DNA of 64,000 nt from Escherichia coli (GTDB taxonomy: Bacteria; Pseudomonadota; Gammaproteobacteria; Enterobacterales; Enterobacteriaceae), in NCBI RefSeq assembly GCF_003790525.1, contig NZ_CP033635.1; one strand, given 5' to 3'. This document shows positions 21,001-30,000 of the stretch, piece by piece. Position 1 is the first letter of the stretch. Each line of letters begins with the position of its first letter. The position numbers are program-made.

Positions 21001-24000
21001 CGCGGAGACTGCACATAAGACGCCACTGCTGCATGTAATGTACCAGCGCCAAACGCCAGTTCTCGGATGGCGATATCCTGTATCAGGTCGTCAGGTATCC
21101 CCACTTTAAGTGGTTTTGTTTTTTCCCGGTTGAATGACTCAGGCCAGAGTTCCACAAGACGAATAATGCGCTTACGGTTTTTGCTCTGGCGTTTTGTCAT
21201 GTCGCCACGGTGTTTTATCAGCAGGTTTCTGTTTATCGTTCAACTGTGGTATCTGGTCACCGGCCTTCATTTTGTATGCTGTGTCCGTTTTATCCTGCAG
21301 CGGCGTTGCCGGTGATTTACTGAAAATACCCTGCGGTTTACGGTTAATGGTCAGCGTTACCATCAGTATTGTTACCTCGTGCTGTCAATGGAAGTGGTAC
21401 CTCATCCGGTATCTGAAAATGTTTTCCGGTGGATGGCACAGCGAATGTCATGTAAGACATGCTGTTGCCGGTATTGTTCAGTACTGTGAGTTGTGAGCGT
21501 ATTCGTTATCAGACAGAGGGGCAGGGAACAAACGTCAGAGGTTAAGGATATCCGGGAACAAATGGCGTAAACGGACATCTCAGTGCCTGAGAAACAGTAC
21601 AGGTCAGGCCATCATGGCCTGCAAACAGAGCCCTGGCGACCCCGTGGCCGAAAACGAAACAATAACCCGCGCGCAGTGCGAGGAATCCGGATGTGAAGCA
21701 ATCAGCAGGTAATATTAATGGCAGGACCAGCAGGTTCTTTAAACAAACGAACATGCTGTAATTGATATTTTGCTTATTGTATTTTCTTTTTAGTTATTAA
21801 ATTAATTTATTTACGAAAAATTTTCTGCAGATACAGGATGGGAATTCAGGGTGTCATCACGCCTTATGATGACACCCTTCCCCTGGTTGTGGAAAACCGA
21901 AGGATATATCAGGTTCAGCAACAAAATCAGTGAGCTGAAAGATACCAGTCCCCCAGCTTCAGCAGCTTTCACGTAAACATAAACAGGGCTCAATGAATAT
22001 CTGATTGCTCCAGTTACCTTCTTTAATTCGTTCCAGCAAAACATTTCCTGCTTCCAGACCAATTTTCCTGTGAGGAACGGCCATTGTTGTTAATGATGGT
22101 TGGCAAACTTTGCTGACGTCACTGTCACCAAATCCTACTACGGCGAGCTCGTCTGGAACTTTGATCCGTCTTCGTTGACATTCATAGAGAACACCGCAGG
22201 CTAACTCATCTGACACACATACCAGGGCATCCAGTTCCGGCCATGCGAGCAAAAATTCCGGTAGTTGTGATGCTCCGGTGGAAAAAACAGGTGGCAGAGC
22301 AGCGTTAATAACACGGTTGGGAGACATATGATGGCGTAACATAGCTTTATACCATCCCTGTAAATGCTGCTGAAAGATCCACTGTTCCTGGTTAGCGCAT
22401 AGCAAACCGATATTCTGATAACCACGTTGTACCAGCATATCCGTCAGCTCGAACATTGCTGCAACATTATCAATACCAATGTTGATATCTATCGGATCAG
22501 TACGAATGGCACCGATTTCTATAACAGGAATCGAGGCATTTTTGAGCAAGTGACGCACGGTACTATTATGATCAACACTAAGCAAAATTGCTGCAGCGAT
22601 ATTAGAAGCCAGCAGGGTTTCCAGCAGTTTTTCTTCTTGTTCCAGACGATGGCGTGACTCAGCCAGGATTATTTGATACCCCGCTGGTTGTAGCACATGT
22701 TGCAGCCCGGCAAACATTTCCGTGCATCCCGCTTCAGCCAGGTTTGGCACGACCATTGCGATCGTGTGTGAAGATGCCGATGCCAGTGCGCTTGCAGTGA
22801 GGTTGGGCATATACCCTAATTCATTAACTGCGGCTTCAATCTTCTCCCTCAATTTATCTGAAACTTGTTCGGGAGTGCGTAACGCTCTGGATACAGTCAT
22901 TGTGCCAACTCCCGCGAGTTGCGCGACATCAGCAATAGTGACTTTACCTGTACTACGACGTTTTCGGGTTATTGCCATACAAAATCCTGCTCAGCGACTA
23001 CATATGGAGATCTTTTATTACTTATCATCAACGGCTTCCTGCACTGCCAGTAGCAGAGTATACCTCTTAATATCTGCCATAAGTCTGGATTTAATCAGTG
23101 AAATCTATTTTGATAGCGCTATCACAAATTCGAACAATACCTCCTGATAGCGCTATCTTTGTGATATTGATCGCAGATATACCGTCGTTACTTGAATACA
23201 TTCTGGTCATATAAATAAGAAATTAGGGGGTGGGAGTGCTTAATATCTGGCTTTCTGATTCAACAATCGCATTACGAAAGAATGCCGCAACCTGGCAGCA
23301 GGCATTAGATATCTGTGCCAGACCGTTACTGGATGCAGAGATAATTACGACGGATTATCTCAGTGCGATAAAGACACAACATGAAAAACTGGGGCCTTAT
23401 TATGTCCTGGCACCCGGGCTGGCCATGCCGCATGCCCGACCAGAAGAAGGGGCAAAAGGATTAGGTTTATCATTATTAAAACTTGAAGAAGGTGTCAGTT
23501 TTCATACAGAGGAATTTGATCCTGTAGATGTTATCATTTTACTTGCCGCACCAGACAAACACAGTCATATCGAAATGATATCTGCACTGGCTGAGTTATT
23601 CTCCAGCGAAAAAGATTTACATGAATTGCATCAGGCTCGCAATGTGGAGGAAATAAAAAAGATAATTTCACGGTTCTGATTACATTATAAATTCAGTCTT
23701 TTCACAACATTGCGCCGTTGCGTGATGGGACTTCTTCAACTTAAAATGGTGAATATAATGAAAATTATGGCTATTTGTGGCTCAGGGCTTGGTAGTAGTT
23801 TTATGGTCGAAATGAATATTAAAAAAGTTCTGAAAAAAATGGATATAGAGGCGGAAGTGGAACATTCCGATCTCTCATCAGCAACGCCAGGGGCTGCCGA
23901 TTTATTTGTGATGGCCAAAGATATTGCTGCCAGTGCCAGCGTACCGGAAAGTCAGTTGGTGGTTATCAACAACATCATTGATATTAATGAACTCGAAACG

Positions 24001-27000: not shown

Positions 27001-30000
27001 AAAAACAGGACGGATCGTAACATGTGAAAACCATAGTATTCATAATGGATTAGGTTCAGCAGTTGCTGAAGTGCTTGTAGAAACTTGTCCTGTGCCCATG
27101 CGTCGGGTGGGGGTTAAAGAGCGGTATGGCCAGGTTGGAACTCAGGACTTTTTACAGAGAGAGTACGGGTTAACCGCGCAAGATATTGTGGCGGCAGCCA
27201 GAGAGCTATTGTAATTCATGGAGTTTGTTTACCATTCTGTTTTTCTTAAAAGTGAGTGTCTGTGCGGTCACTAAACTCGGTAATAAAGCAGTTCATTGCA
27301 GGATAAGAAGCGTTTGGTTGGAGCCTGTTTAGGATTCTGTGTAAATGCCTTTTCTCAGAAGTGACCGTCCAGGCGGTCACCGAACTCGATAATAAAGCGG
27401 CTCATTGCCATTCGCCAGTCCTTCAACGGCATCGTCCATTTCTGGGACGCAGACTGGATTGCCAGCCACACCACTTTTTTCACCGAGTCGTCTGTCGGGA
27501 ACACTTTACGCTTTTTGATCGCATGGCGGATCACGCTGTTTAGCGACTCGATGGCATTCGTCGTATAGATCACTTTGCGGATGTCCGTTGGATAAGCGAA
27601 GAACGTGGCAAGATTCGGCCAGTTAGCCTGCCAGCTTCGGCTTATCTGAGGATAGCGACTGTCCCAGGCCGCAGCGAACGCTTCCAGTGCCTGCTGACCT
27701 GCCTCTTCCGTGGGAGCCTGATAAATCGCTTTCAGGTCGCGAGTGACGGCTTTGTAGTCCTTCCATGACACGAAGCGCAGGCTGTTGCGCACCATATGCA
27801 CGATGCATAACTGGATGCGGGCCTTCGGATATACTGTGTTGATGGCATCCGGGAAGCCTTTCAGGCCATCCACACAGGCGATGAGGATATCGTTCAGACC
27901 GCGGTTTTTCAGTTCAGTCAGCACATTGAGCCAGAACTTCGCCCCTTCATTTTCGGCCAGCCACATACCCAGCAGTTCTTTCTGACCTTCGATATTGATG
28001 CCCAGTGCCAGGAACACCGATTTGTTGATGACGCGACTGTCCTGCCGAACTTTCAGGACGATACAGTCAAGATAAACAATGGGGTAAACAGCATCCAGTG
28101 GTCTGTTTTGCCATTCTACAACCTGCTCCATCACGGCATCGGTGACCTTTGATATCAGTGCCGGTGAAACATCTGCGTCATACAGTTCTTTGAACGCAGT
28201 AGCTATCTCACGGGTGGTCATCCCTTTGGCATACAACGAGAGGATCTGGTTATCCATCCCGGTAATACGGGTCTGATTTTTCTTTACCAGTTGTGGTTCG
28301 AAGGTACCGTCACGATCGCGCGGAGTACGCAGTTCCAGTGGACCGTCGCCTGTGATAACGGTCTTTGTGTAATAACCGTTGCGGGAGTTAGCTCCTGGTC
28401 TGGACTGATTTTTCTCATACCCAAGATGGTGTGTCATCTCTGCATTGAGAGCGGCTTCAACGCTGAGCTTTTTCAGCAGCCGATCAAACTGACTGAGGTC
28501 TTCAGGGGTTTTGAGGTTTTTGGCCAGTTCGTTAGCCAGAGCCTGTAACTGTTTTTCGTCCATAAATTAACCTTCATTTGATGCTGGATTGAACATATCA
28601 AAATCAGGCAATTACACAAATCTATGTACAGGCTCTTTGGTTGTGTCGTTTTACCGTAAGAACCGACCGCCGTATGTAGCCATTAAGCCAGTATTGGTAA
28701 CGTAGGTGCCCACCTTTTCAATGTACTGCGCCCCAAATCTTGGACATCCTATGAAAAATGTTTAAGTCGATATTGAACCGGACTCATACCATCGAGTTTC
28801 TCTTTAATGCGATGGTGATTGTAGTATTCAATGTAATCAATTATATCTTGCTTTAGATGATGTAACTTATTGTATTTATTTAGATAGTAACATTCTGATT
28901 TTAATGTACTAAAAAAGCTTTCCATTGCTGCATTATCTAAGCAGTTACCACGTCGGGACATGCTTTGTGTTATGCCATTATCACTCAACCAACGTTGCCA
29001 ACGAGGCATCTGATATTGCCACCCCTGATCACTATGCAACAAGGGCTTATCGTCTTTATTGAGTTGTTCTACCGCATCTAATAGCATGCTCTTTACCATT
29101 GATGCTAATGGGCGCTCAGTAAGGTTATATGAGACTATTTCTCCATTATACAGGTCCATGATTGGTGATAAATAGAGCTTCCTGCCATCGACCTTAAACT
29201 CAGTGACATCTGTTACCCACTTTTGATTTGGGCGGTCAGCATAAAATTGTCTCTTCAGTAAATTATTACAAGTTCGCCCCTGTTCTCCACGATAGGCACG
29301 GTACTTCTTGCGCCTGATAAGTGAGCTGATACCCAGTTCCTTCATTAACTTTCTGATGGTTTTACCATTAAGTAAAATGCCTCGTTACGGCAGGCAAGTC
29401 TGATGCGTCGATAACCATAACGCCCTTTATGCTGATGGTATATTCTCAATATTACTTGTTTAACAAGTTGATATGGATCTGGCGCATTAAGGCGTTTCAC
29501 GTGATAGTAAAATGTACTACGTGGCAAATCAGCGATAACCAGTAATTGTGATAATGGATGACATTGCCTTAACTCATTAATAATGATTACTTTTTCTTTT
29601 GTTCCAATCGTAATTTTTCCTGAGCTAAGGCTTTCAGCTTTTTTAGATAAGCGTTCTCAACTCTCAGAAACTCAAGTTCTTCCCGTTCACTGATTGTCAG
29701 TTGTGTCGAACGATTTCGTTGATAAACAGCAGGAGTTTTCGGCCTCAAATCTTCCTTTTGTCCCTTCATCGAAAAATCAACCTCACTGTATTTTTTAATC
29801 CATTTGGATATGGTGTTAAAAGCAGGGATCCCATACTTCACTGCAGCTTCCCTTATAGAAAGAGAATTATCAATAACATCTCTGACCACATTCAATCTGA
29901 AGTTATCGTCATAACGTCTTTTTTGCCCAGTCAGTGTTTTTAATCCGTGCTTACGGTAAACATAAGCCCATTTCCTTACCGTGCTGGGGTCAATATTGTA

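Follow-up and report, generated by a model that had tools for sequence, protein, structure and literature searches.

A phosphotransferase cassette with a split transketolase and a conserved operator pair on a genomic island of Escherichia coli

How can a carbohydrate be used by an operon that imports and phosphorylates it and then offers a transketolase as the only further enzyme? This question is raised by a locus in a stretch of 64,000 nucleotides of Escherichia coli (assembly GCF_003790525.1, contig NZ_CP033635.1), which was analyzed as a whole and is called the window in the following. A gene for a LacI-family regulator lies divergent from genes for the EIIA, EIIB and EIIC components of a phosphotransferase system (PTS) and for both subunits of a split transketolase. 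We consider it probable that these six genes form a self-contained, inducible catabolic cassette for a carbohydrate. Cassettes of this kind are already known and poorly characterized; new is the island-borne copy in E. coli, and in other respects the locus is an ordinary sugar-utilization operon.

The cassette and its operator pair

Gene coordinates (Table 1) were taken from the list of open reading frames (ORFs) and from the RefSeq annotation of identical DNA in avian pathogenic E. coli (APEC) IMT5155 and in strain GF4. All six genes of the cassette are intact. The stop codon of the EIIC gene and the start codon of the gene for the N-terminal transketolase subunit (TktN) overlap by 4 nt (ATGA), and the gene for TktN overlaps that for the C-terminal subunit by 8 nt; gaps of 78 nt and 22 nt without any overlap separate EIIA from EIIB and EIIB from EIIC, respectively. 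To place the cassette among its relatives we used a survey of orthologs with one genome per species, which returned 80 loci. Wherever enough flanking sequence was available (~76 loci, ~80 species) the order regulator, EIIA, EIIB, EIIC, TktN and C subunit (R-A-B-C-TN-TC) was found with nothing interposed. No kinase, isomerase or epimerase is located inside the cassette, neither in the window copy nor in any of the ~76 syntenic loci. A preliminary description of the stretch had named the divergent LacI regulator, the three PTS components, the two-subunit transketolase, the overlapping stop and start codons and the absence of these three enzyme types, and all of this is borne out.

The regulator yields full-length matches to LacI-family models of NCBIfam, the best of which are of the GntR/IdnR/CytR type and all of which stay under the equivalog cut-offs. 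PF00356 and PF00532/PF13377 are recorded on its orthologs. The predicted arrangement of an N-terminal helix-turn-helix and a periplasmic-binding-protein-like effector domain is that of the LacI/GalR family.

Two related sequences are found between the regulator gene and the EIIA gene. The first (O1) is an exact copy of the palindrome TGATAGCGCTATCA, with CG at its center. The second (O2), which begins 34 bp after the start of O1, reads TGATAGCGCTATCT; its final base is T and not A, and due to this one mismatch to O1 it is an imperfect palindrome. Two identical copies at this distance had been described before; the exact O1 and the spacing stand, while the second copy has to be corrected by one base. 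For matches with up to two mismatches 0.21 occurrences are expected in the window by chance, and two or more matches were seen in 1 out of 100 shuffles. Apart from this pair in front of the cassette, the window contains no further copy of the operator.

Stronger support than from the shuffling statistics arises from phylogenetic conservation with fixed spacing. O1 is identical in 80 of 80 orthologous intergenic regions, O2 has the form TG[A/G]TAGCGCTATCT in 79 of the 80, and the distance from start to start is always 34 or 35 bp, with the distance to the EIIA start ranging from 88 to 182 nt. If the intergenic regions are aligned with MAFFT, the 16-bp O1 block is invariant, and the blocks TGATAGCGCTATCACA and TG.TAGCGCTATCTTTGTGAT stand out as invariant from the remaining, poorly conserved DNA.

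A further argument comes from a paralogous locus in E. coli O104:H4, where a LacI regulator together with EIIA, EIIB and EIIC adjoins the deoK operon. It corresponds to the vpe locus described for uropathogenic E. coli (UPEC) and NCTC 86 (PMC5382810). The regulators of vpe and of the cassette are 43% identical overall and almost identical in residues 20-60, the DNA-binding domain. The vpe promoter (O104:H4 locus 8075-8140) contains one exact TGATAGCGCTATCA and two degenerate copies, followed by TGCGA-N6-TCACA, which has the same position relative to the last operator as the CRP-like site of the cassette. That two diverged regulators share both the DNA-binding domain and the palindrome in front of their own operons makes a strong case for the palindrome being the operator. 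Judged by these comparisons, O1 and O2 are genuine, deeply conserved operators. As one operator is common to both, the two island-borne PTS operons could cross-regulate each other, and such cross-regulation is possible in strains carrying the cassette as well as vpe. The operator sequence was also looked for in the literature, without a hit. The exact operator pair together with the CRP site provides a handle for studies of the regulator.

In the CRP-like site the half-sites TGTGA and TC[A/G]C[A/G] are kept in position with a variable 6-bp spacer (65 of 80 loci by a strict O2-TTGTGA anchor), and several orthologous loci contain a perfect TGTGA-N6-TCACA. Fixed half-sites with a free spacer are the pattern expected for a CRP site, which is the presumed function of this element. 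The block TTGAATA.A.T (23192-23202) is the only other conserved block on its 3' side. If TACATT within this block represents the -10 hexamer, CRP would be centered at about -41.5, O2 at -57.5 and O1 at -91.5. A generic sigma-70 scan gave 13 promoter-like sites compared to 10.9 in shuffled sequence, with none above background in the intergenic region; since this is no better than shuffled sequence, it is conservation from which the promoter is assigned. The scan for a terminator after the operon found none. In view of the reported induction of Salmonella pagR by PhoB, we also considered a Pho-box-like sequence, CTGCCATAAGTCTGG, at 23075-23089 on the regulator side of the intergenic region; it was dropped as it is not conserved across species.

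Table 1. Features of the cassette, its promoter region and its surroundings, with positions in the window
Feature	Position	Strand	Remarks
LacI-family regulator, 339 aa	21959-22978	-	divergent from the operon; ORF list and RefSeq annotation
O1, perfect 14-bp palindrome TGATAGCGCTATCA (23111-23124) plus invariant CA	23111-23126		exact match
O2, TGATAGCGCTATCT, imperfect palindrome	23145-23158		one mismatch to O1
CRP-like site TGTGATATTGATCGCA (TGTGA-N6-TCGCA)	23160-23175		starts one base past O2; putative function
Candidate -10 hexamer TACATT	23197-23202	+	within the conserved block 3' of the CRP-like site; putative
PTS EIIA, 147 aa, PTS_EIIA_2 type	23236-23679	+	NCBIfam CmtB/UlaC-type IIA matches
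PTS EIIB, 90 aa, PTS_IIB type	23758-24030	+	NCBIfam UlaB-type matches
PTS EIIC, 462 aa, SgaT/UlaA (EIIC-GAT, PF03611) family	24053-25441	+	NF009549
Split transketolase, N-terminal (pyrophosphate-binding) subunit, 276 aa	25438-26268	+	closest solved chain 6YAK_A
Split transketolase, C-terminal (pyrimidine-binding plus C) subunit, 317 aa	26261-27214	+	closest solved chain 6YAJ
IS1414 (IS256 family), 402-aa transposase	27317-28635	-	right boundary marker, outside the operon
nlpA	5298-6116		
yicL	6120-7043		
setC	7154-8338		

Uptake, phosphorylation and ketol transfer

The phosphorylatable residues of the PTS proteins are present: His66 of EIIA and the MPH66AR motif around it show no variation among 64 distinct ortholog sequences, and neither does Cys7 of EIIB (in ICGSG) among 68. 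PF03611, PF02302 and PF00359 are recorded on the PTS orthologs. The three proteins are predicted to form a complex of the SgaT/UlaA (EIIC-GAT) family with separate PTS_IIB and PTS_EIIA_2 proteins.

Whether the substrate is ascorbate has to be considered here, as EIIC scores 989.5 bits against NF009549 (“PTS ascorbate transporter subunit IIC”) and by this passes the cut-off of 890. The cassette could then be a second uptake system for L-ascorbate or a close analogue, with ascorbate-6-phosphate being degraded by the core ula/sgb enzymes and the transketolase draining xylulose-5-phosphate. EIIA and EIIB resemble UlaC and UlaB, and the sole solved relatives are UlaA proteins; the score of EIIC against solved UlaA (4RP8), on the other hand, is only 177 bits (E 4e-51), and a blastn search detecting matches down to ~65% identity did not match core ulaA. 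The regulator of the cassette is of the LacI type. UlaG/UlaD/UlaE/UlaF-type enzymes are absent from the cassette in all ~76 loci, and no lactonase, decarboxylase or epimerase is linked to it in any of the ~80 species. We regard an ascorbate system as distinctly unlikely. Because EIIC is distant from UlaA, ulaA is unmatched and no enzyme of the ascorbate pathway is linked, “ascorbate” in the NCBIfam name is best read as a family label and not as a substrate. The term “ascorbate-type” of the preliminary description is correct in the sense of SgaT/UlaA family membership and should not be taken as a substrate call.

Among solved structures, both transketolase subunits find their best match in the split-gene enzyme of Carboxydothermus hydrogenoformans, the N subunit in chain 6YAK_A (E 3e-64) and the C subunit in 6YAJ (E 1e-70). 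PF00456 and PF02779 plus PF02780 are recorded on the orthologs. The predicted organization, with one subunit for the pyrophosphate-binding (PP) domain and another for the pyrimidine-binding (Pyr) domain plus the C-domain, is that of the split-gene type. Residues were mapped to E. coli TktA by a HMMER alignment to 6YAJ and by motif positions. His28, His68, His101, Asp146, Asn176 and His252 of the N subunit equal TktA His26, His66, His100, Asp155, Asn185 and His261, and Glu64 and His127 of the C subunit equal TktA Glu411 and His473. The thiamine-diphosphate, metal and catalytic residues are all kept in both subunits.

The substrate pocket deviates from this conservation. From the canonical set (TktA Arg358, Ser385, His461, Asp469 and Arg520) three out of five residues are kept as Arg16, Ser43 and Arg170, whereas His461 is replaced by Asp115 and Asp469 by Asn123. 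In TktA, His461 binds phosphate, and Asp469 binds the hydroxyl at donor C4 / acceptor C2. The motif SDAG...CHNGGTHM with both changes is invariant in 83 distinct ortholog sequences. Among ~135 representatives at 50% identity, 43 possess the Asp/Asn pair and 51 the canonical His/Asp pair. The fact that 43 representatives share this pair is an argument that the Asp/Asn enzymes constitute a distinct, sizeable clade and that the enzyme of the cassette is not an inactive paralog. The changes suggest a donor other than the canonical donors of TktA and TktB. Two invariant substitutions also represent a revertible handle on the question of a non-canonical donor.

We further report observations on the neighborhood of other Asp/Asn-type enzymes. 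A 45%-identical member on a Gram-positive metagenome contig (917-8942) belongs to an operon with a ROK regulator, an ATP-binding cassette (ABC) sugar transporter and an FGGY kinase. This operon follows the logic of transport, phosphorylation and then transketolase without a PTS and can be seen as the non-PTS counterpart of the cassette. One distant member neighbors polyol-dehydrogenase/aldolase genes. While one must keep in mind that the more distant members mostly lie on short contigs with uninformative contexts, one of them, in a gut Firmicute, stands alone among housekeeping genes.

A mechanism for the cassette may be outlined as follows. Without the sugar, dimers of the regulator would occupy O1 and O2. 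Repression would most likely work by anti-activation, since O2 adjoins and slightly overlaps the CRP site: the footprints of repressor and CRP would overlap, and a CRP-dependent promoter with its -10 hexamer ~40 bp downstream would be blocked. The sugar, or more likely its phosphate, would release the repressor. EIIA, EIIB and EIIC would then take up the sugar and phosphorylate it with phosphoenolpyruvate as the phosphate source. The resulting product, most likely a ketose phosphate, would serve the translationally coupled split transketolase as its ketol donor. By passing the C2 unit to an aldose phosphate, carbon could enter the pentose-phosphate pathway without a kinase, an isomerase or an epimerase.

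That the PTS product is a direct donor of the transketolase, as proposed in the preliminary description, is plausible on circumstantial grounds, as no other enzyme is part of the cassette in ~80 species and the substrate pocket is altered. The combination of ABC transporter, FGGY kinase and transketolase in the Gram-positive operon, and the co-regulation of an SgaT-type transporter with TktN and TktC in S. pneumoniae, point in the same direction. A precedent exists in the apiose pathway, the split transketolase of which acts on a freshly phosphorylated ketose.

Several points weigh against this view of the cassette. The nearest named families of the regulator (GntR, IdnR) sense sugar acids, which is not an obvious fit to a neutral ketose. 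The housekeeping context in the gut Firmicute implies that the Asp/Asn signature need not mean an exotic substrate, and as vpe works without a linked enzyme, a transketolase of its own is not strictly required by a PTS of such a type. Where the promoter lies and how repression works are deduced from the sequence, and other combinations of -35 and -10 elements overlapping O1 and O2 can be drawn. Finally, the orthologous regulator in Salmonella is reported to activate genes of SPI-2 (Salmonella pathogenicity island 2), so that its role may exceed local repression (PMC7808427).

Some of these points would also fit a transketolase that serves mainly as a back-up isoenzyme of the pentose-phosphate pathway in stress phases. 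The linkage to the PTS would then be incidental or serve precursor supply, and the sugar phosphate would already be a central metabolite. The Salmonella ortholog tktC is described as a third transketolase of this organism, with an expression regulated like that of tktB (PMC12651746). A back-up enzyme would be in line with the fully intact catalytic residues, with the apparent housekeeping role in the Firmicute and with a vpe paralog that lacks any enzyme, but the overlap of the EIIC and TktN genes and the strict co-occurrence of six genes indicate a functional unit under a sugar-specific repressor, and two residues of the substrate pocket are invariantly non-canonical. Moreover, Salmonella TktC is reported by Shaw et al. 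(2018) to be active with a Vmax 10-100-fold below that of TktA/B on canonical substrates. We therefore consider a back-up role rather unlikely.

Returning to the catabolic cassette with a direct donor, a wider generalization can be put forward tentatively, and with more doubt than belief: transketolases with Asp115/Asn123 may form a distinct class with a non-canonical ketose-phosphate donor of which TktA/TktB make poor use, and constitute a two-step pathway that extends from Enterobacterales to streptococci and is wired to the virulence-associated permease vpe by a common operator in some E. coli. If this were true, phosphorylating uptake and one ketol transfer would make up a complete pathway for a plant- or host-derived sugar.

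Distribution and island setting

The 5.5-kb segment occurs at an identity of at least 99% in 132 out of 5426 complete E. coli genomes, from poultry, humans, cattle, pigs and dogs. The survey of orthologs covers Escherichia whittamii, E. albertii, Salmonella enterica arizonae, Klebsiella, Raoultella, Enterobacter, Citrobacter and Kosakonia, furthermore Cedecea, Mangrovibacter, Pantoea, Serratia, Rahnella and Hafnia, and others. In ~70 orthologous loci the cassette is situated between yfcD and (yfcC) pta-ackA. The conserved gene order and this common location across species argue for an old core unit of the enterobacteria.

In K-12 only yfcC is found at the yfcD-pta site, and a junction of yfcD with the cassette is present in none of the 5426 complete E. 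coli genomes. The window copy is not at yfcD-yfcC/pta but on a pathogenicity island, with a CP4-57-like module on one side of it and IS1414 on the other. E. coli is without the cassette at the ancestral site, and a minority of strains carries it on islands as a 5.3-kb module bounded by insertion sequences (IS). It is one of the accessory carbohydrate systems by which certain extraintestinal E. coli of birds and humans differ from K-12.

The limits of the module are sharp. Positions 21955-27215 of the window show 93.4% DNA identity to the chromosomal cassette of E. whittamii (2700-7955) with unrelated flanks, and the homology ends exactly at the outer stop codons, from the stop of the regulator to the stop of the transketolase. 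With other cassette-carrying genomes, homology stops at ~27320. The first of three IS1414 copies in the window (27317-28635, 33657-34933 and 57586-58905; 99.7-100% identical) starts ~100 bp past the transketolase stop and forms the right edge of the module.

In APEC IMT5155 the cassette is part of the island PAI I5155, along with ireA and adhesin genes. Such carriage leads to the thought that it might be mainly regulatory or sensory cargo, relaying a host-sugar signal to virulence or surface genes, with catabolism being secondary. Links to virulence or fitness have indeed been drawn for relatives of the cassette, both for the UPEC locus vpe and for the Salmonella genes pagR and tktC. STM2345 of Salmonella is the LacI-family regulator PagR, a reported activator of SPI-2 genes (PMC12413039, PMC7808427), and vpe mutants are reported to be attenuated and to have less capsule-like material, as far as this is summarized in PMC5382810. 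The cassette, however, belongs to the core chromosome in plant-associated, environmental and commensal genera that do not have these virulence systems, and the restriction of the operator to the cassette's own promoter within the 64-kb window gives no hint of further targets there. A primarily sensory function seems very improbable to us.

The left end of the window (1-8338) contains ETT2-linked Sip/Eip-like type III secretion genes, followed by yicS, nlpA, yicL and setC. As setC, yicL and nlpA stand at its start, the island adjoins the selC neighborhood; ARAGORN found no tRNA genes in the window. Next to the regulator, a ProQ/FinO-family gene (20856-21363) is split into two ORFs and is annotated as frameshifted in GF4 and EC0585. 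The cargo of the island (31129-33367 and 43590-57487) includes a YadA-like adhesin with a sigma-factor-like gene, sodC and an AbgT-family transporter. An ABC transporter accompanied by a glycerophosphodiester phosphodiesterase and a ROK regulator belongs to it as well, as does a 1274-aa autotransporter protease of family S6 (SPATE-type, serine protease autotransporter of Enterobacteriaceae).

Relation to known systems

A locus of extraintestinal pathogenic E. coli (ExPEC) to be considered is tkt1 of APEC O1 and B2 ExPEC, where a transketolase-like gene is likewise accompanied by genes for a PTS and a regulator, on an island associated with ExPEC. Its product is a full-length Tkt1, 68% identical to TktA of V. 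cholerae; the PTS next to it is of the glucose-type IIBC kind, and the island measures 16 kb and lies between metE and ysgA (PMC3349570). With a single-chain enzyme, another location and other neighbors, the tkt1 island was rejected as a match. The link of a tkt-containing operon to ExPEC fitness that had been drawn in the preliminary description is not supported for the cassette, as tkt1, probably the locus meant there, is a different one.

The hint at the selC island of APEC, given in the same place, is right with regard to the location of the island at the selC/setC locus. The carbohydrate cluster aec-35 to aec-37 of AGI-3 in APEC BEN2908, which reportedly consists of a LacI regulator, a major facilitator superfamily (MFS) transporter and a glycosidase at selC, would differ from the operon described here, and no such MFS/glycosidase trio was seen among the annotated genes of the window island.

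A relative within E. coli with the same operator in front of a PTS operon is vpe. It shares with the cassette the divergent LacI-family regulator, the TGATAGCGCTATCA operator followed by a CRP-like site, the order EIIA-EIIB-EIIC and the location on a pathogenicity island. It differs in three operator copies instead of two, in the lack of transketolase genes and in protein sequence (identities of 43% for the regulator, 44% for EIIA, 41% for EIIB and 63% for EIIC). It is also far commoner, a ~67%-identical EIIC being found in about 1300 of the 5426 E. coli genomes compared to 132 for the cassette. The vpe-type locus is a 41-63% paralog without transketolase genes, and an identity of the two operons was rejected. 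A module of an RpiR regulator, a glucose-maltose-type PTS IIC and an N-acetylmannosamine-6-phosphate epimerase was observed within a few kb of both loci (30493-33728 in the IMT5155 stretch with the cassette, 1417-4652 in the O104:H4 stretch with vpe). This suggests that cassette and vpe occupy equivalent slots of related islands.

The apulose-4-phosphate transketolase AptA/AptB of the D-apiose pathway, known from a cluster in E. coli ST131 (PMC13001218), is likewise a split transketolase in a catabolic operon and uses a freshly phosphorylated unusual ketose as donor. In contrast to the cassette its linked partners are an ABC transporter, an FGGY kinase and oxidoreductases and not a PTS, and its pocket reads LNAG...PLASTHH. 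AptAB of E. coli SE15, located via PMC13001218, was rejected as the enzyme in question at 39% (N) and 28% (C) identity and with a different pocket; an aplK-type FGGY kinase is not present in the cassette. An 83%-identical ortholog from Pseudocitrobacter bears the UniRef name “Apulose-4-phosphate transketolase”. As SE15 AptB is just 28% identical and has a different pocket, this name is probably an over-annotation.

In S. pneumoniae, SgaB2, SgaT2, TktN and TktC are co-regulated, which again combines an SgaT-type PTS with a split transketolase (PMC5872165). The regulator SgaR2 belongs to the BglG family and the organism is Gram-positive; the likeness is one of description. The C. hydrogenoformans transketolase (6YAK/6YAJ) is likewise built from two subunits and has its cofactor and catalytic residues in common with the enzyme of the cassette. 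Its pocket is of the canonical type, THAG...EDGASHQ compared to SDAG...HNGGTHM in the cassette.

The best agreement exists with STM2345-STM2340 of Salmonella, comprising pagR, PTS IIA/IIB/IIC and the genes STM2341 and STM2340, which we take to encode the third transketolase TktC. Genes, order, operators and CRP-like site are the same, and the Asp/Asn signature of the pocket is identical. Identities to S. enterica arizonae amount to 86% for the regulator, 74% for EIIA, 94% for EIIB, 93% for EIIC and 88% and 85% for the transketolase subunits. Judging from the gene order and from STM2345 being the LacI-family PagR, the cassette appears to correspond to this Salmonella locus, with the difference that the latter is located between yfcD and yfcC/pta and the module described here is bounded by IS and belongs to an island adjacent to setC.

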